From Burkholderiales bacterium (GTDB lineage Bacteria; Pseudomonadota; Gammaproteobacteria; Burkholderiales; Burkholderiaceae_C): a stretch of DNA of 64,000 nt. Shown here in pieces: positions 3,301 through 37,314 of the stretch. Under the pieces are notes generated by a model. That model had not been told where the DNA came from, ran no database searches, and saw nothing but the letters and a program-made list of their open reading frames with translations. Where the stretch lies: the NCBI GenBank assembly GCA_038318385.1, contig JBBQCD010000001.1, positions 14,164 through 78,163 on the forward strand, in the 5' to 3' direction. How positions within the stretch are numbered: the first letter of the stretch is position 1; the number at the start of each line of letters is the position of its first letter. The position numbers were made by a program, and so were the translations under genes.

Positions 3301-3330
3301 GGCGAAATGACTAGGGTCGAACGGCCACCG

Positions 3331-4821: not shown

Positions 4822-4846
4822 GGACGGTTCAGTTCCTGATGCTGCG

Positions 4847-5930: not shown

Positions 5931-5948
5931 GCCGCGGGCGGCGGCGCG

Positions 5949-9548: not shown

Positions 9549-9570
9549 CGCGCCGGACCGCCCCGCGCCG

Positions 9571-10296
9571 TCACGCCGCGATCTCGGCGTTGTGGAAGAG
9601 GGCCTGGACGTCGTCGAGGTCCTCGATCACGTCGAGCAGCTTCTGCATCCGCTGGGCATCGTCGCCGGTCAACTCGACGCTGTTCTCGGGGCGCATCGTC
9701 ACCTCGGCGAGCTCGGGAGAAAAGCCCGCGCCTTCGAGCCCGGCCTTCACGGCCTCGAAGGCGCCCGGCGCCGTCAGAACCTCGATGGCGCCATCCTCAC
9801 CCACGACGACGTCGTCGGCGCCGGCATCGAGGGCGGCTTCCATCAGCTTGTCCTCGTCTGTCCCCGGTGCGAACACGAGCTGACCGCAGTTGCGGAACTG
9901 AAACGCCACGGATCCGTCGGTGCCGAGATTGCCGCCGTACTTGCTGAAGGCGTGCCGGACCTCGGCCACCGTGCGCACCCGGTTGTCGGTCATGCAGTCG
10001 ACGATGATCGCCGCGCCGCCGATGCCGTAACCCTCGTAGCGGACTTCCTCGTAGTGCACGCCTTCGAGAGCACCGGTGGCCTTGTCGACGTTCTTCTTGA
10101 TGGTGTCGGCTGGCATGTTCGCGGCCTTGGCCTTTTCCACCGCCAGACGCAGGCGCGGATTCATGGCCAGATCACCGCCGCTCTGGCGCGCTGCCACGAC
10201 GATCTCGCGGATGATGCGGGTCCAGACCTTGCCGCGCTTCTCGTCCTGGCGGCCCTTGCGATGCTGGATGTTGGCCCACTTGGAATGACCGGCCAT
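9571..10296 (-). CDS. YebC/PmpR-family DNA-binding transcriptional regulator
   Basis: [32 protein letters not shown] is the invariant family N-terminus. 241 aa. Confidence 0.93.
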
Positions 10297-10379
10297 GAGG
10301 CTCCTCTGCCGCGAGAGCCGCTGGGGCGGGCTCGGGTACGTGTTTGAGTAGACTGTAATTTTACTTGGGGCGCCCCAGC

Positions 10380-11927
10380 ATGGCCGAGCCGATCCTGATC
10401 GCCCGACGAGGCGCCACCGAATGCTGCCTGCTGCCGGAAATGGCCAACCGCCACGGCCTGATCGCCGGGGCCACCGGGACCGGCAAGACCGTCTCGCTGC
10501 AGACGCTGGCCGAGGGCTTCAGCCGGCTCGGCGTGCCGGTCTTCATGGCGGACGTCAAGGGCGACCTGACCGGCATCACCCAACGCGGCACTTTGAGCCC
10601 GAAGATCGCCGCGATCCTCGCCGAGCGCGGCATCACGCCGACCCCACCGAAGGCCTGTCCGGCGACGCTGTGGGACGTCCTGGCGGGGCCGAAGGGCGCC
10701 GCGGGCCACCCGGTGCGCGCGACCGTCAGCGACATGGGGCCGCTGCTGCTGGCCCGCATGCTGGGACTGAACGAGACGCAGCAAGGCGTGCTGCAGCTCG
10801 TCTTCAAGATCGCCGACGACAACGGCCTGCTGCTGCTCGACCTGAAGGACCTGCGGGCGATGCTGCAGCACGTCGGCGACAACGCCGCCGACTACCAGAC
10901 CGCTTACGGCAACGTCAGCGCCGCCAGCATCGGTGCGATCCAGCGCGGGCTGCTGCAGATCGACAGCCAGGGGGGCGACCGCTTCTTCGGCGAGCCGATG
11001 CTCGACATCGACGACTTCCTGCAGACGGTCGATGGCGGCGGCGTCGTCAACATCCTCGTCGCCGAGCAGCTCCTCAACAGCCCGCGGCTCTACGCCACCT
11101 TCCTGCTGTGGCTGCTGTCCGAGCTGTTCGAACGACTCCCCGAAGTCGGCGACCTCGACAAGCCCAAGCTGGTGTTCTTCTTCGACGAGGCCCATCTGCT
11201 GTTCACAGATGCCCCGAAGGCGCTGGTCGAGCGCATCGAGCTCGTCGTGCGGCTCGTCCGCAGCAAGGGCGTCGGCGTCTACTTCGTGACGCAGAACCCA
11301 CTCGACATTCCCGACAGCGTCCTGGCGCAGCTCGGCAACCGCATCCAGCACGCGCTGCGCGCCTTCACCCCGCGCGACCAGAAAGCCGTCAAGGCAGCGG
11401 CGAGCACGATGCGCGCGAACCCGGGTCTCGACGTCGAGAGTGCGATCACCGAACTGGCCGTCGGCGAGGCTCTCGTCAGCCTGCTCGATGCCAAGGGCCG
11501 GCCGAGCGTGACCGAGCGCGCCTTCGTGATCCCGCCGGGCAGCCAGATCGGTCCGATCGACGCCGCGCAGCGCCAGGCGGTGATCGCCCGCTCGCTCGTC
11601 GCCGGGGTCTACGAAAAATTCGTCGACCGCGAATCGGCCTATGAAAAGCTGCAGAGCCGCGTCGCCGCGAGCCCGGCGAAGGGCCCCCCCGTCGGCACCA
11701 CAGCCCCGGCCGGAAGCGCCTCCTCTCCGACTGCACCGGCCGACGGCGGCATCCTCGGGGGCCTGCGCGACGCGATCTTCGGAAGCACCGGCCCGCGCGG
11801 CGGACGCCACGAGGGACTGGCCGAGTCCGCGGCACGGTCGGCGGTCCGTTCGATCGGCTCGAGCGTGGGCCGCGAGATCATCCGCGGCGTACTCGGCTCC
11901 ATCCTCGGCGGCGCGAAGCGGCGCTGA
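10380..11927 (+). CDS. HerA-like helicase-domain ATPase (DUF853/YjgR family)
   Basis: [20 protein letters not shown] (Walker A), [13 protein letters not shown] (Walker B), [15 protein letters not shown]. The track start at 10365 is a TTG. I prefer the ATG at 10380 (MAEPIL). Confidence 0.87.
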
Positions 11928-11966: not shown

Positions 11967-12797
11967 TCAGATGCCCGCGTACCACTCGTAGCCTTCGTCT
12001 TCCCAATAACCGCCCTTGCCGCCGCGGATCGCAGCGAAGCTCGCGACCAGTTCGATGCTGCGGACGTACTTGGCCTGCTTGTAGCCGAGCTGGCGCTCGA
12101 CCCGGCAGCGCAGCGGCGCGCCGTTGCTGACTGGCAGCGCCTGATCGTTGAGCTCGTAGGCCAGGATGGTCTGCGGATGAAGGGCGTCGTCGAGATCGAT
12201 GCTCTCGTAGTAGCGCGAATCGCGACCGTCCGCGCTCGGACCGTCCATCGAGTCGTAGCAGCGGAACAGCACGAATTTCGCCTGAGGCAACGGCCGCACC
12301 CGCTCGAGCAGCGAGGACAACACCACGCCCTTCCACTTGCCGATGCAGCTCCAGCCCTCGACGCAATCGTGACGCGTGATCTGGGTGCGCGCCGGCAGCG
12401 CCCGCAACTCGTCGAGGCTGAAGGCCGCCGGCTGCTCGACCAGCCCGCCGATGGCCAGGCGATAAGCGGCGAAGCCGTCGCGGCGCAGGGCGGCGTAGTC
12501 CGCATCCCTTGGCTCGAGAGTGCCGTTGCTGCGGAACGTCTGGGCAACGTCCGCCGGCGCGAACTCCTGTGCCAGGGCCGGGCGCGGCGCGACGATCTTC
12601 TGCGCCGCCCGGCTGAGGCCCTCGGCGCTCTTGAGAGCCGCCACGAAGTCGGGGTTCTGCGACAGCCGGTCGCAGCCGGTCAGCATCGCCGCGCCCGCCG
12701 CCGCGACCGCACCACGCAGGAGGCTGCGCCGGTCGCGCTGGCGCGCGCGCATCAGCGGGTACGTCTTCTTCATGATCAGCGGGTACGTCTTCTTCAT
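11967..12797 (-). CDS. molybdopterin-dependent oxidoreductase (sulfite-oxidase-fold Oxidored_molyb family), Tat-signal lipoprotein
   Basis: RRSLLRGAVAAAGAAMLTGC is a twin-arginine motif plus lipobox. Also ITRHDCVEGWSCIGKWKGV, SNGAPLRCRVERQLGYKQAKYV. The ATG at 12797 overlaps the cytochrome b stop (ATGA). The track merges this gene with antisense-frame sequence into a 592-aa ORF. Confidence 0.85.
   Translation of the reverse strand: MKKTYPLIMKKTYPLMRARQRDRRSLLRGAVAAAGAAMLTGCDRLSQNPDFVAALKSAEGLSRAAQKIVAPRPALAQEFAPADVAQTFRSNGTLEPRDADYAALRRDGFAAYRLAIGGLVEQPAAFSLDELRALPARTQITRHDCVEGWSCIGKWKGVVLSSLLERVRPLPQAKFVLFRCYDSMDGPSADGRDSRYYESIDLDDALHPQTILAYELNDQALPVSNGAPLRCRVERQLGYKQAKYVRSIELVASFAAIRGGKGGYWEDEGYEWYAGI
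12750..12797 (-). repeat. 24-bp tandem duplication (2 copies, 1 mismatch) covering the start codon and first 8 codons of the molybdoenzyme gene
   Basis: The plus strand reads catcagcgggtacgtcttcttcat | gatcagcgggtacgtcttcttcat. The translated N-terminus is MKKTYPLI-MKKTYPLM. Confidence 0.97.
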
Positions 12798-13699
12798 GGC
12801 TCGACCTTTCGCGGCTTGTCGGCCGGGACCGTGTACCAGCCGGTGACCATCGACCGCAACTGGTTCCACACGCCGCCGACCAGGACTTCGAAGACGTGGA
12901 CGACGACGAACAGCAGCAAGCCGAAGGCCGCCAGGAAGTGGAGCGTGCGCGCCGATTGGCGGCCGCCGAGGAGCTCGACCCAGCCGGTGAAGACGGTGTC
13001 CAGCCGTGGCGACATCGCCAGGCCGGCGAAGACGATCAGCGGCAGCAGGCCGAAGACGACCACCAGGTAGGCGAGGTTCTGCAGCACGTTGTAGCGCCGC
13101 GCCGCCGCGCCCGTCGGATGCCGAAACAGCAGGTGATCGCGGATCGAGCGACCGATGTTGCGTAACTCCTCGCGCGTCGGCACGAGGTCGCGAACCAGAT
13201 GCCGGCTGAACAGCGTGTAGAGGATGTACAGCACGCCGTTGACCACGAAGATCCAGGCGAAGAAGAAGTGCCAGTGGCGTGCCATCGCCAGCCACTGGGG
13301 GCCGGGGATGGTCGCCCAGGACGGGAAGGCGCGCACGGTGGGCCGTCCGTCCACGGCCGACAGGCCGAGCACGCCGGTGGTGGTGAATTCGCTGCCGGCG
13401 ATGCGGGTCACCCCAATCGGACCCTGCGGCGTGTCGCGCCCGCCGATCGAGACCCAGGGGTCGGCAAAAGTCGACTCGCGGCCCCAGTACAGCGCGGGGT
13501 GGGCGTTGAAGATGTTGAGCCCGCTCATCAGCAGGATCGTCATGCAGACCACGTTGATCCAGTGCATGACGCGGATCGGCAGCCGGTGCCGGTAGAAACG
13601 CCGGTCCTCGGACTCGGCTGCCACTCGCCCCGCCGGCTCGGCTGCGACGCGTCCCGTCGGCTCGGCCTCGCCCGTTCCCGCTGCCGTGGCTATCTGCAT
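12794..13699 (-). CDS. cytochrome b-type membrane subunit (Ni/Fe-hydrogenase b-type cytochrome / PF01292-like)
   Basis: FYRHRLPIRVMHWINVVCMTILLMSGLNIF, four or more hydrophobic helices, conserved His residues (HW, HWHFFFAW, HVFE). It is translationally coupled to the downstream molybdoenzyme. Confidence 0.8.
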   Translation of the reverse strand: MQIATAAGTGEAEPTGRVAAEPAGRVAAESEDRRFYRHRLPIRVMHWINVVCMTILLMSGLNIFNAHPALYWGRESTFADPWVSIGGRDTPQGPIGVTRIAGSEFTTTGVLGLSAVDGRPTVRAFPSWATIPGPQWLAMARHWHFFFAWIFVVNGVLYILYTLFSRHLVRDLVPTREELRNIGRSIRDHLLFRHPTGAAARRYNVLQNLAYLVVVFGLLPLIVFAGLAMSPRLDTVFTGWVELLGGRQSARTLHFLAAFGLLLFVVVHVFEVLVGGVWNQLRSMVTGWYTVPADKPRKVEP

Positions 13700-13803
13700 G
13701 CCTGGACCTCCGCTGGTGTGATCGTGTGGAACGGGACCGCGACACGATCCCGTCGATCAGTCGGCCTGCCCCGCGCCGGCCTTACAGCGATCCGTTGCGT
13801 CGA

Positions 13804-15642
13804 TCACGGCACGGGCGCCATCTGCACGGCCGGGCGTTGCAGCAGTCGTGCCTGCGCGGTGACCGCGCCGACGATGTGATTGGCGAAGAAGCTGTTCTGC
13901 GTGTCCGGTTCGAGCGCGGCGACAGCGAGGTTGGCGAGCGGCTGGTCGAGCGGGACGTAGTAGCTGCCGATCTTCATGTCGATCAGCGCCGGCACCGTCT
14001 CGACCTTGGCGCGGATCACGCCGCCCCCGTCGAAGAGGACGCCCCGCACGTCCTGGCGCGCACCGACCTCGCGGCCGAGCTCGCGATAGACCTCGCCACG
14101 CGCCTCGCCGAGCGCCTCGACACGCTCGACCTGAACGCCGAGTGCACGCAGGTGCTGCACCGCGTCGGCCTCGCTTTCGGCAAGCCAGTAGCCGCACGGT
14201 CGCGGCCGGCTCTTCAATGCCCGCAACTCGAGGGCCGAGTCCCAGGTGACATTGACCGGCTTGTCGGCACCCGTCACCGGGTCGATCATCAGCAGGCGAT
14301 ATTCGCTCGGCGTCGGCGCAGCCTCGACGACGACCTCGCCCTGGCAGGCCAGCGCACTCACCTCCTGGTCGACGAACTGACGCAGCTTGACGAGATCGCC
14401 GGCGCGCGACGCCGCGCTTTCGAGAATGCTGGAGGCGGCGACGACATGGGTCTGGACGCGGCGCTTGAGGTGCAGGCGCCCGATGCCGACCCCCCGCGTC
14501 TCCACCAGGATGCTGATGGCGTTCGTCAACCCGAACACATTGCGTCCGGTGTCCGGCTGCGTGCCGCCCATCGAGATCTTCTTGTCGGCGATGTCGGTGG
14601 AGGTCGTGTAGTACCACTCCGAAGTCAGCCCCTGCTGCTTCAGGCGGGCGACGGCTGGCGCGCGAAACCATTCCTCGGCGGCGCGGGTCACGAACGGCGG
14701 CATGTTGGCGGTCATCGCGTACTGCAGCAGCGCGTCGAACCGTTGAACGGCGCCGAACTTCTCGAGGTAACGCCCGACGACGGTGTATTCGTGGGCGTCG
14801 ACGACGACGAGCGGCACGAACTCGCGCGCCAGCCGCGCCAGCGCCTGGGCCTCGGGAGTCTTCAACAACAGGTGATCGCGGTTGGCATCGATGCCGTTGG
14901 CCGTCGCCCGGCGGTTCGCCTCGGCGCCGTCCGGATTCGCGCGGGGCATGACGACGACGTTGATCCGGTCGAGCAGCGCCTCGAGGCGGCCGTGGGCCAG
15001 TTCCTGGGCGATGACGAGCAGCGCTTCACTGCCGGCGGGCTCGTCGCCATGCTGCTGGCCGACGAGCAGGACCGTCGGCCGCGCCGGCATCGCCCCCGAC
15101 AGCACCGAACCCGGCAACGGCAGCACGGCTGCGGGTTGCCCGCGGGTGAACAGCAGCGCTTCGAGCGGCGTGCCGTTCTGCGACGTGCCCAGCAGCAACA
15201 GCTTGATCTCGGTGCCGCCGAGCCGCTGACCGCTGGCACGGACCAGGTCGACCATGGCCGCGTGCAGTTCCGCGTTGCTGGTGAAGCCGGGGTGATCGGG
15301 TGCGAACGCCGGCGTGTGGAAATCGACCTGCGGATCGGCGAAGCGAGCGGCGACGGCGGGGCCGTACGGCGGGGGTGCGGCTGGCGCCAGCGGCACCGGC
15401 TCGGGCAGTGCCGCGGACGGGACCGGCTGCGCCTGGGCCACCGGCGCCGAGGCCGCCGAGCCGGCCGAGGGTGCGGGCATGACCGGGGCCGGTGCCACTG
15501 CAGCGGGGGGCGGCGGCGAAGCCACCGGCACCGGACGCGGCAGCGGCCGCAGCGGCGTGCTCGAACAGGCCGCCAGCACGACCAGCAGGCCGATCCGGAT
15601 CGGCCATGCGCGCCAGCGGCGCCAGGATTCGCTCAAACGCAT
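13804..15642 (-). CDS. M14-family zinc carboxypeptidase, lipoprotein with Ala/Pro-rich linker
   Basis: GQQHGDEPAGSEALL (HxxE zinc motif), VVMPRANPDGAE, NRDH, VVDAHEY. I prefer the ATG at 15642, which gives MRLSESWRRWRAWPIRIGLLVVLAAC (lipobox). Confidence 0.85.
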   Translation of the reverse strand: MRLSESWRRWRAWPIRIGLLVVLAACSSTPLRPLPRPVPVASPPPPAAVAPAPVMPAPSAGSAASAPVAQAQPVPSAALPEPVPLAPAAPPPYGPAVAARFADPQVDFHTPAFAPDHPGFTSNAELHAAMVDLVRASGQRLGGTEIKLLLLGTSQNGTPLEALLFTRGQPAAVLPLPGSVLSGAMPARPTVLLVGQQHGDEPAGSEALLVIAQELAHGRLEALLDRINVVVMPRANPDGAEANRRATANGIDANRDHLLLKTPEAQALARLAREFVPLVVVDAHEYTVVGRYLEKFGAVQRFDALLQYAMTANMPPFVTRAAEEWFRAPAVARLKQQGLTSEWYYTTSTDIADKKISMGGTQPDTGRNVFGLTNAISILVETRGVGIGRLHLKRRVQTHVVAASSILESAASRAGDLVKLRQFVDQEVSALACQGEVVVEAAPTPSEYRLLMIDPVTGADKPVNVTWDSALELRALKSRPRPCGYWLAESEADAVQHLRALGVQVERVEALGEARGEVYRELGREVGARQDVRGVLFDGGGVIRAKVETVPALIDMKIGSYYVPLDQPLANLAVAALEPDTQNSFFANHIVGAVTAQARLLQRPAVQMAPVP

Positions 15643-27600: not shown

Positions 27601-27807
27601 ATGACCATGATTCGATTGACCATGAGCCCATTCTTTCGCGTACTCGGCAGACTGTTCGCCATGTCTGTCACCGATTCCCAGGATCGCGACGCCGACTACC
27701 TCGCACAATCGACCGACATCTACGACCTCGAGCGGCGCATGCGCCACGTGGACGACCGCCAACAGACGCTGCACGCGATCGGGACTTACGGCGTCTTCAT
27801 TCGCTGA
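27601..27807 (+). CDS. DUF3563-family small protein
   Basis: DADYLAQSTDIYDLERRMRHVD matches the conserved YLAQSTDxxDLERRMR core. Three in-frame ATGs (27601, 27607, 27622) leave the start uncertain. Confidence 0.62.
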   Translation: MTMIRLTMSPFFRVLGRLFAMSVTDSQDRDADYLAQSTDIYDLERRMRHVDDRQQTLHAIGTYGVFIR

Positions 27808-27831
27808 ATGCCTCCCGGGCCGAGACCGGCA

Positions 27832-28353
27832 TTACCATGTCGCCCGAACCAGCCCGGCCACTGCAACGGCGCGCGTTCCCGTGCCCCCGCCCGGCCCGAT
27901 CACCGCCTGCGTGATCGCCCAACGAGGCAGCGGTTCGCCGGCATTGAGTTCGTCGACGTAACGAAGCAGAGTCGCAAAGTCGACGAATTCGGCGTCCACA
28001 TGGATCGAACGCTCGGCCCTCACGATTTCGACCGTCACCAGGTCGACCCCGGCCATGTCGACCGTCTCGAGGGCCGTCAGCATGGCCGGCCAGTCGGAGG
28101 GGGATGCGACCCTCGCCTTTTCGTGAGGCTTCGCCGCCGAAGGCTCCCGCGAGGCAGGTAGCGACTCTGCAGTCTTGGAGGCGACCTCCCGCATCAATCC
28201 GTCGCGGCGCGCATTCAACTCCCCGAGGCGGTTCGTGGCGTCGATGACGCCGGCCCACAGCGCCAGCGTTCCGACCGTGCCGGCCACGAGAACAAGCCCC
28301 TGCACGACCCGCGGCGTCGACCGGCGGCGCAGGTCGACATTCAAGGGTTTCAC
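27832..28353 (-). CDS. PilN/GspM-like bitopic inner-membrane assembly protein (last gene of the secretion operon)
   Basis: The GTG at 28353 overlaps the upstream stop (GTGA). It has a short basic N-terminus, one TM (VVQGLVLVAGTVGTLALWAGVI), a coiled segment, then a C-terminal alpha/beta region (VDLVTVEIVRAERSIHVDAEFVDFATLLRYVDEL). The call rests on architecture only. Confidence 0.5.
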   Translation of the reverse strand: MKPLNVDLRRRSTPRVVQGLVLVAGTVGTLALWAGVIDATNRLGELNARRDGLMREVASKTAESLPASREPSAAKPHEKARVASPSDWPAMLTALETVDMAGVDLVTVEIVRAERSIHVDAEFVDFATLLRYVDELNAGEPLPRWAITQAVIGPGGGTGTRAVAVAGLVRATW

Positions 28354-29138
28354 GAGATCGCTTCCAGCGGCGAGCTGAAAGGCGGGCCATCGGGCGCAGG
28401 CTCCGCAGCGACGCCGTGACGCTCGCGCATGGCCACGCGGATGGCTCTCCCGGGATCGAGATTCGACGTCAGAAGGGCTCGAACGGTCAAGTCGCGCAAC
28501 GCCAGCGTCCCGGGCACGGGCGAATGGCTCGCCGCAGAGATAAGGGCTCCGGTGCCGCCAATGAGGACGGTCGCTGCGTCGGTATCGTGGGCGAGCACGA
28601 GCGCGTCGGCCCCGCGACCGCGATCGAGGGCGTGGTTGAACGCCAGCGTCCACCAGGGCCGCAAGGCGACCAGTCTCGCGCCGCTGCGCCGGCAAGCGGA
28701 CTCGATGGCGCCCCGCAGGGAGCGATCCATTGCCACGCACAGGCACGGACGTTGGGGGGCCCATGCGTCGAGCCAGACGTCGCACGGGCCTTCCAACCCC
28801 GTGGCCTCGAGCGCCATGTGCGCGACCACCTCTTGCGCCTCGCGAATGTGCACCAGGCCCGACACGGGCTCGAGGAAGAATGGAGGTGCGAGGGCACCGG
28901 ACAGCGAGATCGCCAGGCGCGGACGGCGCCATCCAGCGCGACGGGCGTCCAGCAGAACCAACACCTTCCGAAGGCCGTCCAGCGGCGAATCCGCTGCAAG
29001 CCAGTGCTCCTCAGCGGGCGACGACGCGTCATGGCCCGCAACGGCCACTCGCGTTGTCCCGAGATAGATCTGGATGACCTCAGAGGCAGCCCACGACACG
29101 CTGGACCTCCTCGACCGAGGTATGCCCGCGAACCACAT
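28350..29138 (-). CDS. PilM / GspL-cytoplasmic-domain-like actin-fold protein without a transmembrane segment
   Basis: About 250 aa and soluble. Position directly after gspE, and a pattern of alternating beta/alpha blocks (VIQIYLGTTRVAVAG..., CLCVAMDRSLRGAIESACRRSGARLVALRPWW, ALVLAHDTDAATVLIGG). The start is uncertain: ATG 29138 or GTG 29099, and both overlap gspE. Confidence 0.45.
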   Translation of the reverse strand: MWFAGIPRSRRSSVSWAASEVIQIYLGTTRVAVAGHDASSPAEEHWLAADSPLDGLRKVLVLLDARRAGWRRPRLAISLSGALAPPFFLEPVSGLVHIREAQEVVAHMALEATGLEGPCDVWLDAWAPQRPCLCVAMDRSLRGAIESACRRSGARLVALRPWWTLAFNHALDRGRGADALVLAHDTDAATVLIGGTGALISAASHSPVPGTLALRDLTVRALLTSNLDPGRAIRVAMRERHGVAAEPAPDGPPFSSPLEAIS

Positions 29139-30693
29139 GCCATGCAGCTTGACTCACGAGCGATTCGACTCCCCGTTCGACGGCATGGCGGCGCAGGGCA
29201 GAGACCGGTACGCCCTCGGTGACGCCATCGCGCAAGGTGTCGTCGACCCGATGAACCTCGGCAACCACGAACCGACCTCGATACCCGGTCGCGCCGCAGT
29301 GCGTGCAGCCGACCGCTCGCGGCACACCGTGCTGGTCGGCCTGACCCGCCATCGCGAGCCAATCACGCTCGCGCTCGGTCGTCTCGCGCACCGCAACGCA
29401 GTGTTCGCAGAGTCGCCTCACCAGGCGCTGGACGACTACGCCGTTCAACGACGACATGAAGCCGAACATGTCGAGTCCGAAGTGCCGGAAGCGACCGATC
29501 ACGTCAGTGATGCCGTTTGCGTGCACCGACGTGAACACCAGATGTCCCGTGAGGGAAGACTGAACCGCGATCTCGGCGGTCTCGGCGTCGCGGATCTCAC
29601 CGACCAGGATCCGGTCGGGGTCATGCCGCAAGATGGATCGCAGCCCCCTCGCGAATGTGAGGCCCTTGCGCTCATTGACGGGAATCTGAAGGACGCCGGG
29701 CAGCTCGTACTCCACCGGGTCCTCGATGGTGATGATCTTCTCGGCCCCTGTGTTGATCTCGGAAAGCACTGCGTAGAGGGTCGTCGTCTTGCCGCTTCCC
29801 GTGGGTCCGGTGACCAGCAGCATTCCGCTCGGCTCGCGCGCCATGTCGCGAATCAGCATGGCATTGCCTTCCTGAAATCCGAGCAGGTCGAGTGAAAGAG
29901 CGGACGACCGGCTGCGCAGCTGCGCCTTGTCGAGCAAACGCAGAACCGCATCCTCCCCGAACGCGCTCGGCATGATCGAAACCCGGAGATCGGTGCTGTC
30001 GCCCGCGCGGCTGAAGCGGAACCGACCGTCCTGAGGCAACCTGCACTCGGTGATATCGAGTTGCGCCAGAACCTTGATTCGCGAAACGACTTCCTGAGCC
30101 GACTGGAGTCCTTCCAGGCGCGAATGGCGTCTGATCACGCCGTCGAGACGATGCTTGACGGTGACGCCCGACCGGTCGCACTCGAAATGGACGTCACTGG
30201 CGCCACACTGCAGCGCTGCGACGACGGCCGCGTCGACGAAGGCGACGACCGGACTGTCGGCGGATGATGACCGCGCCCAGGTCGTATCGCCGGCGGCGGT
30301 GCCGGCTTCGTCACCGAGGAGCCGATCGATGGCGGCCCGCGTCGCCGCAGCGGGGGCTACCCGCGCACCGAGGCGCCGGCTGGCACGTCGCAACAGCGCT
30401 TCGTCCCAGGGGTCTTCGGCAACGAGCAGCGGAGCGCTGGCTTCGCGCGGCACGATGGCACAGCGCCAGCCGCGAGCGGTCGCCCGATCGATGACGGAAA
30501 AATCCGCCTGCTCGGCAGGGCCGGCGTCGAAGAATCCGACGCCGGCCTCGGCCGGGAGGCGTTCAGCGAGGGTGGAGACGTCCCAACCCGGCAAGCTCAG
30601 CAACACGTCGAGAATGGCTGGGCCGCCGGCGCGATAGTGTCCGCGAGCGGTCGACACCGCTTCGCGAAGCGAAGAATCATGCGCGAGCATCAT
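29080..30693 (-). CDS. gspE: GspE/PilB-family secretion ATPase
   Basis: ASDVHFE, ITECRLPQDGRF, LVTGPTGSGKTTTLYA (Walker A), ITIEDPVEY, RHDPDRILVGEIRD (Walker B / Asp box), TGHLVFTSVHAN (His box), CEHC...CTHCGATGYRGR (tetracysteine). I prefer the ATG at 30693, 9 nt after the gspF stop. Confidence 0.92.
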   Translation of the reverse strand: MMLAHDSSLREAVSTARGHYRAGGPAILDVLLSLPGWDVSTLAERLPAEAGVGFFDAGPAEQADFSVIDRATARGWRCAIVPREASAPLLVAEDPWDEALLRRASRRLGARVAPAAATRAAIDRLLGDEAGTAAGDTTWARSSSADSPVVAFVDAAVVAALQCGASDVHFECDRSGVTVKHRLDGVIRRHSRLEGLQSAQEVVSRIKVLAQLDITECRLPQDGRFRFSRAGDSTDLRVSIMPSAFGEDAVLRLLDKAQLRSRSSALSLDLLGFQEGNAMLIRDMAREPSGMLLVTGPTGSGKTTTLYAVLSEINTGAEKIITIEDPVEYELPGVLQIPVNERKGLTFARGLRSILRHDPDRILVGEIRDAETAEIAVQSSLTGHLVFTSVHANGITDVIGRFRHFGLDMFGFMSSLNGVVVQRLVRRLCEHCVAVRETTERERDWLAMAGQADQHGVPRAVGCTHCGATGYRGRFVVAEVHRVDDTLRDGVTEGVPVSALRRHAVERGVESLVSQAAWHVVRGHTSVEEVQRVVGCL

Positions 30694-30704
30694 GGAGGCT
30701 GCAG

Positions 30705-31901
30705 TCAGCGGACGCCATTGGCAATATCGAAGATCGGCATGTACATCGTGACCACGATGCCGCCGACCACCAGCGCGACCAGCAACAGCAGCAGCGGCTC
30801 GACAACTCGCATCGCTCGCTCCACGAAGGTCGCGAATTCGCCAGCGCAACGGTCGGCAATCGCCTGGAGCACCGTGTCGAAGCTGCCACTGCGCTCACCC
30901 ACGCCCAGCAGGCGGCGCGTGACCTCATCGGTGAGTCCGGCTTCGCCGAATGCAGACGCCACCGCACGGCCCTGGGCGATCTCGCCGCGCGCCCGCGCGA
31001 TGCCGGTGTCGACACTCGTTCCAAGACCCATTTCCGCGCTCACCGCCAGTGCTTCGTCGAGCGTGTAGCCGCCGCGAAACATCAGCGCGAGAGCCTGATA
31101 GAGCTTGGCGCGGCGGAAGTGATTCCACTGATTGCGCAGCGGCGGTATCACCTCGACGAGACGCGCCATCATCTTCCAGGCAAGACCTTTGCGGAACATC
31201 CATGCCACCAGGAGAAGAAGGCCGACCCCTGCGGCCATCACCACGGGCACTTGGTCGTGCAAGGCCTCGCTGAGCATCATCAACACGCGCGTCGGCACGC
31301 TGACGGCGCCATGGAAGTCGACGTACATCCGAGAAAATCGCGGGATGACATAGAGCAGCAGGAACAACGCCACCAGAAACCCCAACAGCGCGACGACGGC
31401 CGGGTAGATTGCCGCGCTGATCGCCTGGCGGCTCAGGCGCATGACCATTTCGTCGTAACGCAGGTAATCCTCGAGTGCGCCGGTCAACGTTCCGGTGCGC
31501 TCGCTGGTCGTGACGCCGGCGATGAGGACGGCCGGAAACGCACCGGAGCGCTGCATGGCACGCGACAGGCGGTGCCCCTGCTGCAACGAGCGAAGCAACC
31601 CGGTGTGCACGATCTCGCGTTCTGTTCCTCGAGCTTGGGCGGCCAGCGTCTCGAGGGCCTCCACCGCCGTCATGCCGGCCTTCAGCAAGGTGGCCAGCTC
31701 GCGACACCAGGTGGCCACTGCGAAGCGCGACGGGCGTGGAGCGAGCACGAGCGACGCCTTCGAGTCGTGGCGCAGCTGGAGGACGATCCTTCCGGCGACG
31801 GCGGAGTCGGTGCGAAGGGCTTGCTCCGAGGGAGCCTCGACTCGCGAGTCGACAACGGCTCGCTGCACCGGATCGTAGTAGCGCAACCCGTACATGGCCA
31901 T
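30705..31901 (-). CDS. gspF: GspF/PilC-family inner-membrane platform protein
   Basis: 398 aa with two repeated T2SSF domains (RELATLLKAGMTAVEALETLA ... ERTGTL; LYQALALMFRGGYTLDEAL ... GERSGSFDTVLQ) and three TM segments. Confidence 0.9.
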   Translation of the reverse strand: MAMYGLRYYDPVQRAVVDSRVEAPSEQALRTDSAVAGRIVLQLRHDSKASLVLAPRPSRFAVATWCRELATLLKAGMTAVEALETLAAQARGTEREIVHTGLLRSLQQGHRLSRAMQRSGAFPAVLIAGVTTSERTGTLTGALEDYLRYDEMVMRLSRQAISAAIYPAVVALLGFLVALFLLLYVIPRFSRMYVDFHGAVSVPTRVLMMLSEALHDQVPVVMAAGVGLLLLVAWMFRKGLAWKMMARLVEVIPPLRNQWNHFRRAKLYQALALMFRGGYTLDEALAVSAEMGLGTSVDTGIARARGEIAQGRAVASAFGEAGLTDEVTRRLLGVGERSGSFDTVLQAIADRCAGEFATFVERAMRVVEPLLLLLVALVVGGIVVTMYMPIFDIANGVR

Positions 31902-31925
31902 GATGCGTCCCTTGGCCCGGGCCCA

Positions 31926-32384
31926 TCAGCGGACGATGTCGGCGGCGTCGCCGCTGCCACCCGGGAGCCGGTCCTTGCCGTGACTCAGGAGGTCGTAATC
32001 CCGGCCATTCGAGCCCGGTGCCCGATATTGATAGGGCGTGCCCCAGGGATCCAGCGGAACATCGCTCTGCAGGTACGGGCCGCGCCAGCGTGACTCGTCC
32101 ACCGGTTGCGAAACCAGGGCACGCAGGCCCTGGGCCGTCGAAGGGAAGCGGCCGGTGTCGATTCGATAGCCCTGGAGTGCCTTGTCGAACGCATCGAGCT
32201 GCGCGCGCGCGGCGGTCACCTCCGAACGACCGACCTGGCCGAGAAAACGGGGCGCGACGACGCCGGTCAGCAAGCCGATGATCAGGATGACGACAAGCAG
32301 TTCGAGCAAGGTGAAGCCCTGGAAGCCCCGCCCAGAATGAAGCCCCGACGGCGCCTGCATCCGCAGGGCGGTACGCCTGCTCAT
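31926..32384 (-). CDS. gspG: major pseudopilin GspG
   Basis: GFTLLELLVVILIIGLLTGVVAPRF (prepilin cleavage/methylation motif with Glu5), AQLDAFDKALQGYRIDTGRFPSTAQGLRALV, RWRGPYL, DPWGTPYQYRAPG, YDLLSHGKD. The ATG at 32384 overlaps the upstream stop (ATGA). Confidence 0.9.
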   Translation of the reverse strand: MSRRTALRMQAPSGLHSGRGFQGFTLLELLVVILIIGLLTGVVAPRFLGQVGRSEVTAARAQLDAFDKALQGYRIDTGRFPSTAQGLRALVSQPVDESRWRGPYLQSDVPLDPWGTPYQYRAPGSNGRDYDLLSHGKDRLPGGSGDAADIVR

Positions 32385-32914
32385 CGATCGACCTTCGCGA
32401 TGAACTTCCACTCGGAGTATTCCCGCGCGGCCGGTAGCGCAAGCCCGGACATTTCCCACGGCGCGACGTGCATCGGCTTTTCGGTACCAAGGCTGAAGAC
32501 CCCCCTAACGCTGCCGTCCGCACCCCGCACGATTCCCCACGGCCTCGCGGGGTCGAGCGGATCGGGGTAGAGCTTGCGAAGATGCCGGAGCGTTCCGACG
32601 CGACGTCCATCGGCCAGGAGACTGTCGAGGTCTGGCGGATACGCCTTCAGCGAGCCCGGGGAGGCAGCGTGATAGGCAGCAATGGCTGCGGCGTACAGGG
32701 ACCCGATGCGCAGGAGATCCTGTTCGCGATCGCGCCGGCTGGCATCGGACCACCTGGGAGCGACCGTGGCCAGGCCGAGCGAGAACACGACCACGGCCGC
32801 GAGCATCCACACGTAGGTGAACCCTGGACCGGAAGATGCTGATGGGGGTCCGCGCCGAGCCCGGCAACCGGCGGGACGGAGGGCGGATCGCCGCGCGCAG
32901 TCACCAGGCCGCAT
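32381..32914 (-). CDS. atypical minor pseudopilin (prepilin-like N-terminus lacking Glu5)
   Basis: GPGFTYVWMLAAVVVFSLGLATVAPRW has a G/F cleavage context but Trp where Glu5 is expected. It has a long basic leader. The ATG at 32914 overlaps the previous gene by 14 nt. Confidence 0.55.
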   Translation of the reverse strand: MRPGDCARRSALRPAGCRARRGPPSASSGPGFTYVWMLAAVVVFSLGLATVAPRWSDASRRDREQDLLRIGSLYAAAIAAYHAASPGSLKAYPPDLDSLLADGRRVGTLRHLRKLYPDPLDPARPWGIVRGADGSVRGVFSLGTEKPMHVAPWEMSGLALPAAREYSEWKFIAKVDR

Positions 32915-33287
32915 ATCGTGTCCCGTCGCGGGCTGAACCCTCCGCCCCACTCCGCACATCTGCAACGGCCCCGGAATCGGGAGCCGTTGGTGCGACCAAG
33001 ATCCAGGAATCGGCGCGTTCGGTGATCGGATCGAGCGGGAGCCGGCGCAGGTATCGCGCCTGAACCAGTTCATCGAGATCGATCGGAAAGCGTGCACGAT
33101 CGGCATGGAACTTGTCGATCGCGTCGCGCACGCCAGCGAGGTTGTGTCGCAGCACCGCCTCGCGCGCGCGGTCGACATGCTCGGTGTAGCGCGGCGCGCT
33201 GATCGAGAGCAACAGACCGAGGGCGGCCATGACGACCAGCAGTTCGATCAAGGTGTATGCACTGGCGGCGCGCCGTAAACGCGGCAT
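32901..33287 (-). CDS. minor pseudopilin (prepilin-type N-terminal methylation domain)
   Basis: MPRLRRAASAYTLIELLVVMAALGLLLSISAPRY has Ala at position -1 instead of Gly. The C-terminal DVRSGAEGSARDGTRYAAW resembles the tail of the preceding pseudopilin. Confidence 0.72.
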   Translation of the reverse strand: MPRLRRAASAYTLIELLVVMAALGLLLSISAPRYTEHVDRAREAVLRHNLAGVRDAIDKFHADRARFPIDLDELVQARYLRRLPLDPITERADSWILVAPTAPDSGAVADVRSGAEGSARDGTRYAAW

Positions 33288-33289
33288 CT

Positions 33290-33766
33290 CTACCACTCCT
33301 TCAGGGCGATGCCGTTCAAGCCGATCCGTTCCGAACGGGAAGCCACGTCGTAGACGTCGGCGCCCGGGCGCGGTCGCTCGGCAGAGGACTGGTAGCTGCG
33401 CAGCGCCCACGTCTGTGCGGCAGGGACGCTCGCCACCGCGAACGGATCCCGCGGAATCCGTCGCAGGAAGCGGTGGGTGCGCCCCGCTACCTTGGGGTCG
33501 GCCAACCCGCTTACCAGGGATTCGAGGCTCTCCGGATAGCCGGTCTCTCCCGGTTTCCCCGCGATCCCCCCGGCATCGGTGGCGCGGCGGTAAGCATCGA
33601 TGGCATCGCGAATCTCCCACAGCGCATGCTTCAACTCGCGCTCCCGATCGCGCTGGACCGCGATCTCCGCCATCGGCAACGCCGCGGCCGCGAGGATGCC
33701 GAGAACCGCCATCACGGCCAGCAATTCGACCAGCGTGTAGCCTCGGGAGCGCGGATGGCGCGTCAT
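33290..33766 (-). CDS. pseudopilin (GspG-like fold family, prepilin-type N-terminus)
   Basis: MTRHPRSRGYTLVELLAVMAVLGILAAAALPM. C-terminal DVYDVASRSERIGLNGIALKEW. The ATG at 33766 overlaps the secretin stop (ATGA). Confidence 0.8.
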   Translation of the reverse strand: MTRHPRSRGYTLVELLAVMAVLGILAAAALPMAEIAVQRDRERELKHALWEIRDAIDAYRRATDAGGIAGKPGETGYPESLESLVSGLADPKVAGRTHRFLRRIPRDPFAVASVPAAQTWALRSYQSSAERPRPGADVYDVASRSERIGLNGIALKEW

Positions 33767-36069
33767 CGAGTCCCCGCAACCTGCTGGATGTCCAGTTTCA
33801 ATGGCGGCAGCGACGCCGGCTCGGCAACGGGCCCGGCCAGACCGATCGGACGCATGCTCAACAGTGCAACCTCCGCGAGGCCCGCCGCGAGCGCCTTGAA
33901 GCGCAAGGTGAGGACATTGCCTTTGCCGACAGCGCCGGTCAGCGTCGTTCGGAGGACGCCCGCGCTGGCGCGGGCGCTCCCGGCGTCGATGGTCTGGGTG
34001 AAGCTGGTCTGCGCACCGCCCTGCCGGAAGAGTTCGGCCTCCTCGATCGCGACCAGTTCGAGCTTGCCCTTGCTGTAGCCGAGCTCGACGGGCAAGCCCC
34101 GAAGGGGCTGGTCAGACTGAATGGCAACCCGCACGTCGAACGTGTCGCCGGCCTTCACGCTCGGCGGTCCGCTCAGCGACGCGATCGGCGATGCCGATGT
34201 CGACGCCTCCGGTGGCGCCACCACCGGGCTCTGCGGCGGCCAGGAACGGGCCGCTACGCCCCCGCCCCCGCCGCCGCCCGAGGACGCTGCCGACGATGAA
34301 TCACCGCCCCCGCCGAGATCGCCCCCGGCCTGAGCCGACGTTGCGACGCCGCCGACCGGTCTCAGCCGCGGCGACGCCTCCGTCCCGACCCAGATTTCAG
34401 ATTCCGCGATGTCCGGTCGTTTCAGACTGCGAAGGACGCGCGGGGTGATCGAGAGCACCAGCTCGACCCGCTGCCCATTGTCGAGCTGACTGGAGAACAG
34501 CCGGCCCGCCAACGGCAGGTCGCCCAGCCCGGGTACCTTGCTGGCGTCGCTGCGCTCGGCCGTGCTGATCAGCCCCGCAAGCAGCTGGGTTTCACCGTCG
34601 CGCAACCTCAGCAGGGTCGACGCGTTGCGCGTGCCGATCTGGTAGGCGAGCGTTCCGGATGCGGTCTTGATGACGCTGCCGAGCGAGCTGACCTCGAGTC
34701 CGATCCTGATCGCCACCTCGTCGTCGACGTAGACCGTGGGCTCCACCTCGAGCTTGAGTCCGACATCGATGTAGCTGACGCTGTCGGAAACGAAACCGGT
34801 CGAACCCTGCGTCGTCGTCACGATCGGGATCTTGTCGCCGACGAGGACGCGGGCCTTCTCCTTGCTGCGCACCCGGATGCGCGGGTTGGCAAGCATGTTG
34901 AAATCGCCCGTCTCGCGCTTGAGGTTGACGGTGACGCCGCCGATCGACAGGCCGATACGGTCGCGGGTCACGCCGCGGACGTTGGCGAGAGTCAGTCGAT
35001 CCGCGCCCATCGGCGGCAGCAAGGTCAAGGCGAAGAAGTCCGGAAACTTCACGCCCAGTTCGGTGAGACGAGAGGTATTGATCTCGATGACCTCGACTTC
35101 GAGCAGGACCTCGGGCTCGGCAGTGTCGTAGAGCATCAGAAGGCGTTCGGCCATCTGCACGTTCGGCTCCGATTCGCGCAGCGCCAGCATGTTGGTGCGC
35201 TCGTCGACATAGGGGTCGCGGATCTTCAGCATCGATTTCAGGAACGCGGCTGCGCCCTTGGCGTCGCCACCCGACAGGTGGAAGACGCGCACGACCTGCT
35301 CCTGGTGCTCGCGCTGCTTGTCCGGCGTGTTGGGGTAGATCAGCATCGTCCGGCTGTCGACCACCTTCTTGGCCAGCTGGTTCGTGCTGACGATCAGCTC
35401 GACCGCGTCCTCGACCCGTACCGACCGCAGATAGGCGGTGACGCGAACGTCGCTGCGAATGTCCTTGTCGAAGACGAAATTGATGCCGCTGTTCCTCGAC
35501 ACGGCATCGAGAACGGTGCGCAGGTTCGCGTCCCGGAAGTCGATGGAGATGGGTCGCGTCTCGGCAAGGCCGAGTTGCGACGCCTGAAGCTGGGTCTGGC
35601 GTTGCTCGGCCTCGATGCGTCGCTTCAACGCCAGCAGTTCCGGATGCCGCGGCTGCGCCTTCAGCGCTTCGACAACAGTCGAAGAGGCCGCGTCCAGACG
35701 ACGTTGATCGACGAGCGCACGGGCGCGAGCCAGCGCGGCCTCCTGCCGCCGGTCGGTGGCGATCTGGCTGCGCATGGCGTCGATGCGCGGGTCGTTCGGC
35801 TGAAGGGTCGAAGCACGCATCAGGACCCGTTCGGCATCGTCGAGCTGGCCTTCTGCACGCGCAGACCCGGCCTGGGCGAGCACGCGCGCCAGCACTTCCG
35901 CCTTGGTCTCGAGCAGTCCGGCTCGCAACAGTGCGCTTTCAGGGTAGGTCTGCAACCCGGACTCGAGGACCATCGTGGCCTGCTCGTAGTGACCCGCACG
36001 CATCTGGATCAGGGATTCGTCGCGGATCCGTTGCTGGACACAGCCAGCAAGTGCAAGGAGGGTGCACAA
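33763..36069 (-). CDS. gspD: secretin (GspD/PilQ superfamily) lipoprotein with N-terminal TPR-like region and C-terminal Gly/Ser linker plus cohesin-like domain
   Basis: Secretin core: FNMLANPRIRVRSKEKARVLVGDKIPIVTTT...LLRLRDGETQLLAGLIS...KVPGLGDLPLAGRLF...ELVLSITPRV. N-domain: ISIDFRDANLRTVLDAVSRNSGINFVF. Lipobox: LALAGC. The tail (aa ~633-745) is an all-beta pattern, GDTFDVRVAIQSD...GNVLTLRFKALAAGLAEVAL. The start is uncertain (TTG 36069; see findings). Confidence 0.88.
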   Translation of the reverse strand: MCTLLALAGCVQQRIRDESLIQMRAGHYEQATMVLESGLQTYPESALLRAGLLETKAEVLARVLAQAGSARAEGQLDDAERVLMRASTLQPNDPRIDAMRSQIATDRRQEAALARARALVDQRRLDAASSTVVEALKAQPRHPELLALKRRIEAEQRQTQLQASQLGLAETRPISIDFRDANLRTVLDAVSRNSGINFVFDKDIRSDVRVTAYLRSVRVEDAVELIVSTNQLAKKVVDSRTMLIYPNTPDKQREHQEQVVRVFHLSGGDAKGAAAFLKSMLKIRDPYVDERTNMLALRESEPNVQMAERLLMLYDTAEPEVLLEVEVIEINTSRLTELGVKFPDFFALTLLPPMGADRLTLANVRGVTRDRIGLSIGGVTVNLKRETGDFNMLANPRIRVRSKEKARVLVGDKIPIVTTTQGSTGFVSDSVSYIDVGLKLEVEPTVYVDDEVAIRIGLEVSSLGSVIKTASGTLAYQIGTRNASTLLRLRDGETQLLAGLISTAERSDASKVPGLGDLPLAGRLFSSQLDNGQRVELVLSITPRVLRSLKRPDIAESEIWVGTEASPRLRPVGGVATSAQAGGDLGGGGDSSSAASSGGGGGGGVAARSWPPQSPVVAPPEASTSASPIASLSGPPSVKAGDTFDVRVAIQSDQPLRGLPVELGYSKGKLELVAIEEAELFRQGGAQTSFTQTIDAGSARASAGVLRTTLTGAVGKGNVLTLRFKALAAGLAEVALLSMRPIGLAGPVAEPASLPPLKLDIQQVAGTR

Positions 36070-36162
36070 GACGACCTGCGACAGACCGAGGGAGAGTCTC
36101 GGTGTCGTTGTCCCACCCTGCGCGTTCGCTGCATCGATGATGGGCTCCGCGTCTCACTGCGT

Positions 36163-36723
36163 TCAATCGCGGGGAATCGGGACTGTCGCTGTCGTACCGG
36201 TAATCTCGTGGACCAGCGTGACGGCCTCGTCGGACACGGACATCACGGTGTAGCCCTCGTCGACTTTCTGACCGGCGACGACCGCGAACTCGGAGGCCCC
36301 GCGTGCCATGTAGAACAGTGGGCCGCCCTCGACAGGCGCCATTCGGCCGACGAAGCGAAGCCCTATCGAAGGGGCGGCCGCCGCAATGACCGTGCGGGGA
36401 GCGGGGCCTGGATTGCCGGCCGAGGATGGCACCGTCGGAGTGACCTGTCGAACGACGGGCGGCGGCTGGGATGGCATCGGGTCCGATCGCAGGGCGAAGA
36501 TGTCCCGCTTCGCGTCTTCGAGCCCATGTCCGCGTCCGGCGTCGGGCGCGGCCACTCCCCGGTTGGCGGTTGCCGTCGTCTCCCGCGTGGTGGTGCCTCG
36601 CACGCCCACCATCTCGGAGGTCCCGTTCACCGCAGCAACAGCCTGCACGGGACGATCCGTCCATGCGGACGCGGCCGCCAGCATCGCGGCAACGCCAAGT
36701 GAGAACAGCAGGCCGCGACGCAT
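36163..36723 (-). CDS. PilP / GspC-HR-like periplasmic protein
   Basis: Signal peptide MRRGLLFSLGVAAMLAAASA, then a Pro-rich linker. The C-terminal LRFVGRMAPVEGGPLFYMARGASEFAVVAGQKVDEGYTVMSVSDEAVTLVHEITG fits the PilP/GspC homology-region beta-sandwich pattern. It sits immediately upstream of the secretin. Confidence 0.55.
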   Translation of the reverse strand: MRRGLLFSLGVAAMLAAASAWTDRPVQAVAAVNGTSEMVGVRGTTTRETTATANRGVAAPDAGRGHGLEDAKRDIFALRSDPMPSQPPPVVRQVTPTVPSSAGNPGPAPRTVIAAAAPSIGLRFVGRMAPVEGGPLFYMARGASEFAVVAGQKVDEGYTVMSVSDEAVTLVHEITGTTATVPIPRD

Positions 36724-36738
36724 CTCAGCCCCTTCCTG

Positions 36739-37314
36739 TCAGCGGCCGGCCTGCGTCGCCGCGGCGAATGGCGGACGACCCAAGGTCACGAGCAGTGTCA
36801 CGTCGACACCGGCCCCGGCGGCACCTCTGCGCAACGAGATGCGATCGAGCGTCGAGTCGGAATACCGGTCCGCGGTTGCAGCCAGGACCCGCTTGACGTT
36901 CGGGTATGTCCCGTGGAGGCCGAGATGCAGGACTTCTGACGAGTCTGGCGCGCCTTGAGTTGCCGACGGCTGCGCGTGCAGGGTCGTCAGTTCGACAGAC
37001 GACTCCAGGGAGTCGCGTTGCAGACTGGCGATCAGCGCTTGTGTCGTGGTCGCTGGCCGATTGACGATCGTCATGTCGGCCGGTGGCGACTCCGCATGCG
37101 CGACGCCCTCCGGCAAGACGGGCTTCAACTGCCGATCGACCTTGCTGATGTTGGCCCGCAGCGCGCGAACCCGGGCTTCCAGATGGGCCGTCAGAACCCA
37201 GGCGACAACCGCGAGGAAGGCCATGCAGAGCAGAATGGCCCGACGGATGGGAGGGTCGAGCGCTTGATGCCAAACCACCCGGAAAGAGGCCCGAACGCCG
37301 CTCGGGAGGCGCAA
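36739..37314 (-). CDS. PilO/GspM-like bitopic inner-membrane protein (first gene of the secretion operon)
   Basis: One TM (AILLCMAFLAVVAWVLTA), a coiled segment (HLEARVRALRANISKVDRQL) and a C-terminal domain (VLHLGLHGTYPNVKRVLAATADRY...VDVTLLVTL). The start is TTG 37314 or GTG 37278. Confidence 0.5.
   Translation of the reverse strand: MRLPSGVRASFRVVWHQALDPPIRRAILLCMAFLAVVAWVLTAHLEARVRALRANISKVDRQLKPVLPEGVAHAESPPADMTIVNRPATTTQALIASLQRDSLESSVELTTLHAQPSATQGAPDSSEVLHLGLHGTYPNVKRVLAATADRYSDSTLDRISLRRGAAGAGVDVTLLVTLGRPPFAAATQAGR

Follow-up and report, generated by a model that had tools for sequence, protein, structure and literature searches.

We analysed a 64,000-nucleotide stretch of a Burkholderiales bacterium genome (GenBank assembly GCA_038318385.1, contig JBBQCD010000001.1, positions 14,164 to 78,163; hereafter the window), in which a minus-strand gene encodes a 768-residue secretin. 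At its C-terminus this secretin carries a genuine cohesin-family beta-sandwich on a flexible tether. As the cohesin is already annotated in public databases, the existence of the domain is not new; what is new is a secretin subfamily defined by a tethered cohesin, in an unstudied type II secretion system (T2SS)-like system that is genetically linked to Sec-dependent Rhs and toxin complex (Tc)-like toxins. Searches of a literature library that paired cohesin with secretin, with GspD or with type II secretion brought up no study of a secretin-cohesin fusion.

A first-pass annotation of the window had singled out positions 33763-34350 (secretin residues 574-768 plus the stop codon), where it saw a cohesin-like beta-domain, and had proposed a Pfam run and a structure prediction with fold search. 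Both return a cohesin. The Pfam Cohesin profile (PF00963) matches the whole protein with 27.1 bits and the tail alone with 29.8 bits, above the gathering cutoff of 24.1, which places the module in this family; relatives score 32-42 bits. An AlphaFold2 (AF2) model of residues 625-768, built with 37 aligned tails, is all-beta with about 9 strands (mean predicted local distance difference test score, pLDDT, 94.7; predicted template modelling score, pTM, 0.86) and has the nine-stranded beta-sandwich (jelly-roll) that characterizes cohesins. The module is modelled equally well within the full-length protein (residues 629-762, pLDDT 92-97), and at ~134 residues it is longer than the ~110 residues first assigned to it. 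When the tail model was compared with the PDB by Foldseek, ranks 1-49 were all cohesins with probability 1.00, including type I, type II and the non-cellulosomal C. perfringens and A. fulgidus modules, with template modelling (TM) scores of up to 0.80 (query-normalised) or 0.85 (target-normalised) at sequence identities of 8-18%. A sequence-only search of the PDB with the tail detected no relative and gave low-complexity matches only.

A word-indexed protein search with the tail alone returned 2 matches only, and a full-length query and an exhaustive profile search were needed to collect relatives. The tail profile, searched exhaustively against 1.84 billion representative proteins, matches 6,153 proteins at E <= 1e-3. 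The multi-copy matches are bona fide multi-cohesin proteins with 4-9 Pfam Cohesin repeats, some with type IX secretion system (T9SS) sorting tails and one with Dockerin_1. Together, the Pfam, AF2, Foldseek and reciprocal profile matches make the structural identification solid. Three polar residues of the module, R33, T64 and R83 (tail numbering), are invariant and are placed by the model on strands 3, 5 and 6, which in classical cohesins form part of the dockerin-binding sheet; this modelled position is a lead, not evidence.

The fold by itself could also serve to bind a sugar. Carbohydrate-binding modules (CBMs) are related to the cohesin fold, itself a beta-jelly-roll, and a module that binds glycan (peptidoglycan, lipopolysaccharide core or exopolysaccharide) might anchor or position the secretin in the envelope as the AMIN domains of PilQ do. 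In keeping with this, Pfam detects no AMIN or other peptidoglycan-binding domain on the secretin, no dockerin partner was detected in the neighbour proteins and 10-kb flanks scanned, and a tether of 25-100 residues would suit reaching the peptidoglycan layer. However, the top 49 fold matches are cohesins and not CBMs, Pfam and the reciprocal profiles assign the module to the cohesins, a family known from its characterised members to bind proteins, and no sugar-binding motif was identified in it. We consider glycan binding improbable.

A full-length search returned 5,265 relatives at E <= 1e-10, and about 72% of the best 120 have a precomputed PF00963 match. A separate scan of species-representative genomes detected a relative in at least 578 genomes and left 80 retained loci; 84 loci were analysed in total, 82 of them non-redundant. 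Within Burkholderiales the retained loci belong to Sphaerotilaceae-type genera, Comamonadaceae and Oxalobacteraceae; the others come from Rhodocyclales (Accumulibacter, Propionivibrio), Nitrosomonadales (Gallionella, Ferrigenium), Neisseriales, Hydrogenophilales and one Thiohalomonadales metagenome-assembled genome (MAG). Using a family-specific hidden Markov model (HMM), we detected the cohesin at the extreme C-terminus of the secretin in 82/84 loci, down to ~36-39% identity, indicating that the cohesin tail defines a large subfamily of secretins and is no isolated fusion. The cohesin region is gap-free in 117/117 full-length relatives and moderately conserved, to a degree similar to that of the tetratricopeptide repeat (TPR) arm at the other end of the protein. 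The first-pass annotation had stated that its reading would fall if the tail proved to be an accessory domain that is common, already annotated and of known function; common and annotated it is, with no known function attached.

Public names for members of the family are inconsistent ('cohesin domain-containing protein' for several in NCBI or UniRef, and for others PilQ, 'hypothetical protein' or 'secretin N-terminal domain-containing protein'). The secretin on a Janthinobacterium lividum plasmid (L004, G8765_RS29175) is given the misleading term 'polysaccharide catabolic process' (Gene Ontology, GO:0000272) because of its cohesin domain match alone. Two secretin-cohesin genes stand in tandem in one Burkholderiales MAG (L059), at 8473-11241 and 12431-15025.

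The 768-residue protein is a 100% match to a public NCBI protein (P0003), and its domain layout is given in Table 1. Pfam places TPR at residues 23-166, STN/N0 at 176-246, Secretin_N at 260-311 and Secretin at 386-547 (E = 4.9e-37); the STN, N0 and Secretin_N matches are sub-threshold. A PF00263 barrel with N0/N1 upstream makes the protein a secretin. Its scores against the NCBIfam models stay below the curated cutoffs for GspD (TIGR02517, 142 vs 351.35 bits), PilQ (TIGR02515, 150.9 vs 284.35) and MshL (TIGR02519, 89.8 vs 250.2), indicating a separate secretin subfamily. The strings quoted by the first-pass annotation are all present in the open reading frame, and the core ends where it had been placed, at LVLSITPRVL (ELVLSITPRVL, residues 536-546). 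The closest relative (P0004, 88% identity, 961 residues; corresponding to window ~33293-34207) has a longer tail. We considered this tail as a new architecture and rejected it: a frameshift in the G-rich linker repeat puts the cohesin region in the frame of the downstream pseudopilin, to which it is fused, and the frameshift is probably an assembly error or the mark of a pseudogene.

The linker that had been described as flexible, AQAGGDLGGGGDSSS...EASTSASP (residues 579-628), is disordered in the full-length AF2 model, where pLDDT is 31-42 over residues 557-624. Among 117 relatives no other part of the protein varies as much or has as many indels (column entropy 2.53, 28% gaps), and family-wide the linker consists of 68% G/S/A/P/T, with a spacing between core and cohesin of 57-131 residues (median 81). 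The tail does not begin directly with this linker, as had been proposed, since a conserved post-core segment of ~30 residues (547-575) stands between core and linker. Its motif RPDxxxxEFWSGTExxLRxRP is kept even in the clade of ~38% identity, and the monomer model shows only one 4-residue helix in it (residues 554-557); the segment may be a short S-domain-like staple. No helix-turn-helix S-domain follows the barrel in the AF2 model, so that the protein cannot be classed with the S-domain secretins, in agreement with the first-pass annotation, which had found a cohesin-like domain where the S-domain would normally be. Its statement that PilQ proteins also end with an S-domain is inaccurate, as S-domains belong to T2SS and type III secretion system (T3SS) secretins. 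No pilotin-like gene was recognised by Pfam or NCBIfam or by gene content in the cassette of the window or in those of Piscinibacter and Rhizobacter.

The N-terminus carries a lipobox, LAGC, in which C10 is invariant and G9 at least 90% conserved among 42 diverse family members. The invariant lipobox Cys, which is the sequence hallmark of liposecretins, makes the family look like liposecretins, and the secretin is probably a lipoprotein. With TTG at 36069, the longest canonical start, the lipobox Cys is preceded by just 9 residues, an atypically short signal peptide, and the true start is probably non-canonical (ATC or CTG) or mis-called. The in-frame upstream stretch IIDAANAQGGTTTPRLSLGLSQVV (window 36040-36156, minus strand) would complete a normal signal peptide and contains no ATG, GTG or TTG. 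The idea that the cohesin acts as a built-in pilotin substitute is unlikely, because the invariant lipobox and the TPR solenoid already supply the self-piloting feature of liposecretins. We also considered the N-terminal TPR region as a fused PilF/PilW pilotin. This is unsupported by sequence, as there are weak generic TPR and weak Amuc_1098_fam matches only, and we keep it as an analogy.

The secretin gene lies in an 11-gene minus-strand cassette (window ~27832-37314), which comprises two small genes, the secretin, four GspG-like pseudopilins, GspF, GspE and two further small genes. The same 11-gene order is found in Piscinibacter and Rhizobacter (L001, L002) and nearly the same in Janthinobacterium. 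In a distant clade (e.g. Ferrigenium) GspF and GspE come first, and PilM-like, PilN, PilO/GspMb and PilP-like genes (the first and the last assigned by position) stand directly before the secretin. The 191- and 186-residue proteins encoded upstream of the secretin in the window have no Pfam or NCBIfam match. The equivalent of the 191-residue gene is annotated or matched as GspMb/PilO in L004 and L067; the 186-residue protein has a signal/transmembrane segment, a Pro-rich region and a C-terminal beta domain, and may be PilP/GspC-HR-like. Recognisable components are thus GspD-like, GspE, GspF, GspG-like and other GspG-like pseudopilins, with a PilN/PilO-like platform in relatives. Neither GspC nor a GspH-K tip complex is recognisable in the cassette, which leaves the canonical T2SS set (GspC-M) incomplete and, together with the PilN/PilO-like platform, indicates a reduced hybrid of T2SS and type IV pilus (T4P) rather than a canonical system. 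The G+C content of the window is ~69%; within the cassette (~27800-37300) it is 0.66-0.68 vs ~0.70 in the flanks, and at third codon positions (GC3) 0.80-0.84 vs 0.87-0.93 in neighbouring housekeeping-type genes. These lower values are a hint of horizontal acquisition. Homologous cassettes are located on plasmids or megaplasmids in Janthinobacterium and Ralstonia.

Table 1. Features of the secretin gene, its cassette and Tc-like neighbours in related loci. Positions are those of the window unless preceded by a locus handle; aa, amino acids; ~, approximate limit.
Feature	Position	Strand	Evidence
Secretin gene, 768 aa (lipobox, TPR, N0, N1, barrel, post-core segment, linker, cohesin)	33763..36069	-	Open reading frame, Pfam domains, full-length AF2
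N-terminal lipobox (LALAGC, Cys10), then TPR solenoid, aa 2-165	35575..36069	-	TPR_14/TPR_19 above cutoff; helical repeats with pLDDT >90
N0 (STN, aa 174-246) and single N1-type domain (Secretin_N, aa 259-314), periplasmic	35128..35550	-	Sub-threshold Pfam; both confidently folded
Secretin beta-barrel domain, aa 320-546	34432..35112	-	PF00263, E = 4.9e-37; strands in AF2 model
Conserved post-core segment, aa 547-575 (RSLKRPDIAESEIWVGTEASPRLRP)	34345..34431	-	Conservation in relatives
Low-complexity Gly/Ser/Ala/Pro linker, aa 576-628	34186..34344	-	AF2 disorder, family alignment
Cohesin-fold module, aa 629-762	33784..34185	-	Pfam match aa 637-730 (nt 33880-34161); AF2, Foldseek, conservation
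Two small upstream genes, 191 aa and 186 aa	36163..37314	-	Open reading frames
Four pseudopilin genes	31926..33766	-	N_methyl, T2SSG and TIGR01710 matches
pp1	33290-33766	-	
pp2	~32901-33287	-	
pp3	~32381-32830	-	
GspG	31926-~32330	-	
GspF	30705-31901	-	T2SSF match
GspE	29080-~30700	-	T2SSE match
Small downstream gene, PilM/L-like	~28350-29080	-	By position
Small downstream gene, PilN/M-like	~27832-28360	-	By position
TcB-like and TcC-like Rhs pair	L026:7-3150 and 3152-7210		
TcB-like and TcC-like Rhs pair	L006:173-3523 and 3528-7580		
TcB-like proteins with acidic C-terminal helix	L006:173-3523; L026:7-3150; L004:3-2864; L019:18699-22244 and 1-1938; L009:14014-17592; L011:3-1943; L001:2-1396		

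The position of the module within the protein and the cassette points to a second possibility, in which it is an assembly or stability element that replaces the clamp of S-domain and pilotin. It would bind the neighbouring subunit, the TPR arm, the PilP-like protein or the adjacent pseudopilin, and this contact would make the ring more stable or link it to the platform in the inner membrane. The tail sits at the S-domain position with no S-domain helices predicted, a second protein-interaction module (TPR) is present on the same subunit, and the pp1 homolog directly follows the secretin in 84/84 loci, its start overlapping the secretin stop in the window. Furthermore, the module occurs family-wide with or without nearby Rhs genes, which fits a partner in the core machine better than a variable cargo. 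On the other hand, a disordered tether of 50-70 residues and variable length would be unusual for a rigid clamp, the invariant lipobox already provides outer-membrane targeting, two loci (L022 and L024) have lost the module from an otherwise intact cassette, and there is no direct evidence for an intramolecular contact. We regard this explanation as possible, if on balance rather unlikely.

In Piscinibacter, Rhizobacter, Janthinobacterium and Ralstonia the cassette is adjoined by very large genes. One neighbour combines SpvB, FG-GAP and TcdB_toxin_midN (Pfam/NCBIfam), the architecture of TcB. The second contains YD/RHS repeats and an Rhs-associated core; its C-terminal regions in the different loci are not related to one another, and a small open reading frame comes next, as in a TcC-like/Rhs polymorphic toxin. 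Such Tc-like or Rhs neighbours are present in L001, L002, L003, L004, L005, L006, L026 and others; no TcA gene was seen in the flanks of related loci. In tblastn searches, 40/82 non-redundant loci have an Rhs-like gene no more than 10 kb from the cassette; among the 34 loci with full flanks there are 20 such cases, and a TcB-like gene is as close in 15/82. Since Rhs genes are rare in genomes, we roughly estimate chance adjacency at a few percent at most. The TcB-like and Rhs neighbour proteins start with typical Sec signal peptides. Classical insecticidal TcB/TcC proteins are not known to carry Sec signal peptides, and cargo of T2SS-type two-step export requires them. On the megaplasmid of Ralstonia solanacearum RS638 the neighbour (L003:4800-8483, minus strand) differs from the TcB-like ones, as its RHS repeats are accompanied by an F5/8 type C (discoidin) domain at the C-terminus and a Peptidase_C39-like region at the N-terminus.

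In 8 loci a low-complexity G/S/T/P linker leads to a conserved acidic helix, [NS]PAxLxxIxxxLLxDD-COOH, at the very C-terminus of the TcB-like protein. The helix is absent from six further TcB-like proteins, which end directly behind the cocoon domain. We regard it as a candidate docking tag on a tether, one that either the cohesin or the TPR arm might bind, although it is not universal. The most specific reading of this linkage is that the cohesin ring is the cargo receptor of a new secretion route, in which a dedicated type II-like machine of Betaproteobacteria would export Sec-delivered Rhs polymorphic toxins and TcB/TcC-like cocoon proteins; the cohesin would recognise a non-dockerin ligand, and the acidic helix on a subset of the TcB-like proteins would be one candidate. 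In this specific form we think it unlikely.

A broader reading, in which the cohesin docks a periplasmic protein of either kind, cargo or assembly partner, is in our view the most likely function, at about even odds. In this model the secretin is the outer-membrane pore of a compact type II-like system of about 11 genes, with a PilMNOP-like platform, GspE, GspF and several GspG-like pseudopilins, that is widespread in Betaproteobacteria. Each subunit is probably a lipoprotein and has an N-terminal TPR arm, the post-core segment, a disordered tether of ~50-70 residues and the cohesin. Solved secretins of T2SS, T3SS and T4P have their C-terminus on the periplasmic face of the barrel, suggesting a ring of cohesins on tethers beneath the outer membrane; a 12-15-mer would carry them on flexible tethers of ~20 nm. 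The cohesins would catch and concentrate a periplasmic partner at the pore entrance. The most plausible partners would be Sec-exported cargo, e.g. the TcB-like and TcC/Rhs-like toxins, and an assembly factor would also be possible.

The topology also bears on whether the module could instead be displayed on the cell surface, where it would retain secreted proteins such as the Rhs/Tc toxins, or adhere, in the manner of a cellulosomal anchoring scaffoldin. Classical cohesins are extracellular, the related multi-cohesin proteins carry T9SS surface-sorting tails, and a long flexible linker is typical of such display, but the C-terminus of the solved secretins is periplasmic and there is no evident means by which a folded 134-residue domain would cross the outer membrane from there. 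We consider surface display very improbable. The earlier suggestion that the tail anchors a surface polymer would likewise need an extracellular C-terminus, at odds with the solved secretins. The observation and the structural call of the first-pass annotation have thus held, and its functional suggestions have fared unevenly; docking of cargo is the best remaining of them and is unproven.

Several points weigh against docking of an exported cargo. Pfam did not find Dockerin_1 in the seven neighbour proteins scanned, and a search by regular expression, a test of low sensitivity, detected no paired Ca-loop motif in the six-frame open reading frames of the 84 loci (10-kb flanks) or of the window. 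A Sphaerotilus MAG (L022) and an Ideonella MAG (L024) are without the cohesin, a clean loss with the rest of the cassette kept, and the Ideonella locus still has its Rhs neighbour. Nowhere in its 64 kb does the window itself contain an Rhs or TcB gene, and nearby Rhs genes are missing from about half of the loci, so that a cargo-specific role cannot be read from the context here. A folded TcB-TcC cocoon would be larger than known secretin channels, which makes secretion of the assembled complex doubtful. Finally, the periplasmic topology of the cohesin is assumed from other secretins.

We know of no linear secretion signal for type II-like machines, and their choice of substrate is for this reason a long-standing open question. 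A dedicated, tethered interaction module on each secretin subunit offers a tractable entry to substrate selection. Ralstonia solanacearum, a plant pathogen, has a member of the family in its uncharacterised 'unorthodox T2SS', and the family is often linked to signal-peptide-bearing Rhs/Tc-like toxins that lack a known export route. It also exposes an annotation problem, with inconsistent names and a misleading GO term inherited by some members.

Among known systems, the module shares its beta-sandwich (TM 0.7-0.85) and Pfam family with the cellulosomal and non-cellulosomal cohesins (C. thermocellum type I/II; C. perfringens 2vo8/2jh2; A. fulgidus 2xdh). It differs from them in sequence (8-18% identity) and in being fused to a Gram-negative outer-membrane secretin, probably in the periplasm, and no cognate dockerin was found for it in the scans described above. 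With the GspD-type T2SS secretins that have an S-domain and a pilotin (GspS/AspS), the family has in common N0/N1, the barrel and a C-terminal extension at the position that binds an accessory protein, whereas it has one N1-type domain, a tether and cohesin in place of the helical S-domain, and no pilotin gene in the cassette. The N-terminal lipobox and TPR array resemble the liposecretin HxcQ (P. aeruginosa), the TPR lipoprotein pilotins PilF/PilW/Tgl and the Amuc_1098-type TPR-secretins, which suggests self-piloting; unlike the family described here, none of these has a C-terminal cohesin, and the TPR region shows no detectable PilW/PilF homology. The neighbours recall the TcB-TcC cocoons of Tc (ABC) toxins and the Rhs polymorphic toxins, having either SpvB, FG-GAP and TcdB_toxin_midN or RHS repeats, an Rhs core, a variable C-terminus and a small open reading frame, but they carry Sec signal peptides and are tied to a T2SS-like cassette, not to type VI secretion system (T6SS) or lysis-type release.

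The closest parallel is in R. solanacearum, whose megaplasmid encodes a secretin homolog with 43% identity over 99% coverage, cohesin included, in a cassette that corresponds to one of two 'unorthodox T2SS' clusters. In the passages that name them, these clusters are listed without functional characterisation (Li et al. 2016, PMC5080846; Cho et al. 2019, PMC6428702), and the pan-genome comparison independently noted that, in tomato-non-pathogenic strains, one unorthodox T2SS is missing along with its neighbour rhsB (PMC6428702). Neither PMC5080846 nor PMC6428702 came up in a full-text search for 'cohesin' and 'GspD'. The Ralstonia system has a slightly different gene order, and its Rhs neighbour has discoidin and C39-like domains and is not TcB-like. 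It shares with the system in the window the same secretin family and the reduced gene set of GspD, E, F and G with pseudopilins and small genes, and, like other cassettes of the family, it has adjacent Rhs genes.

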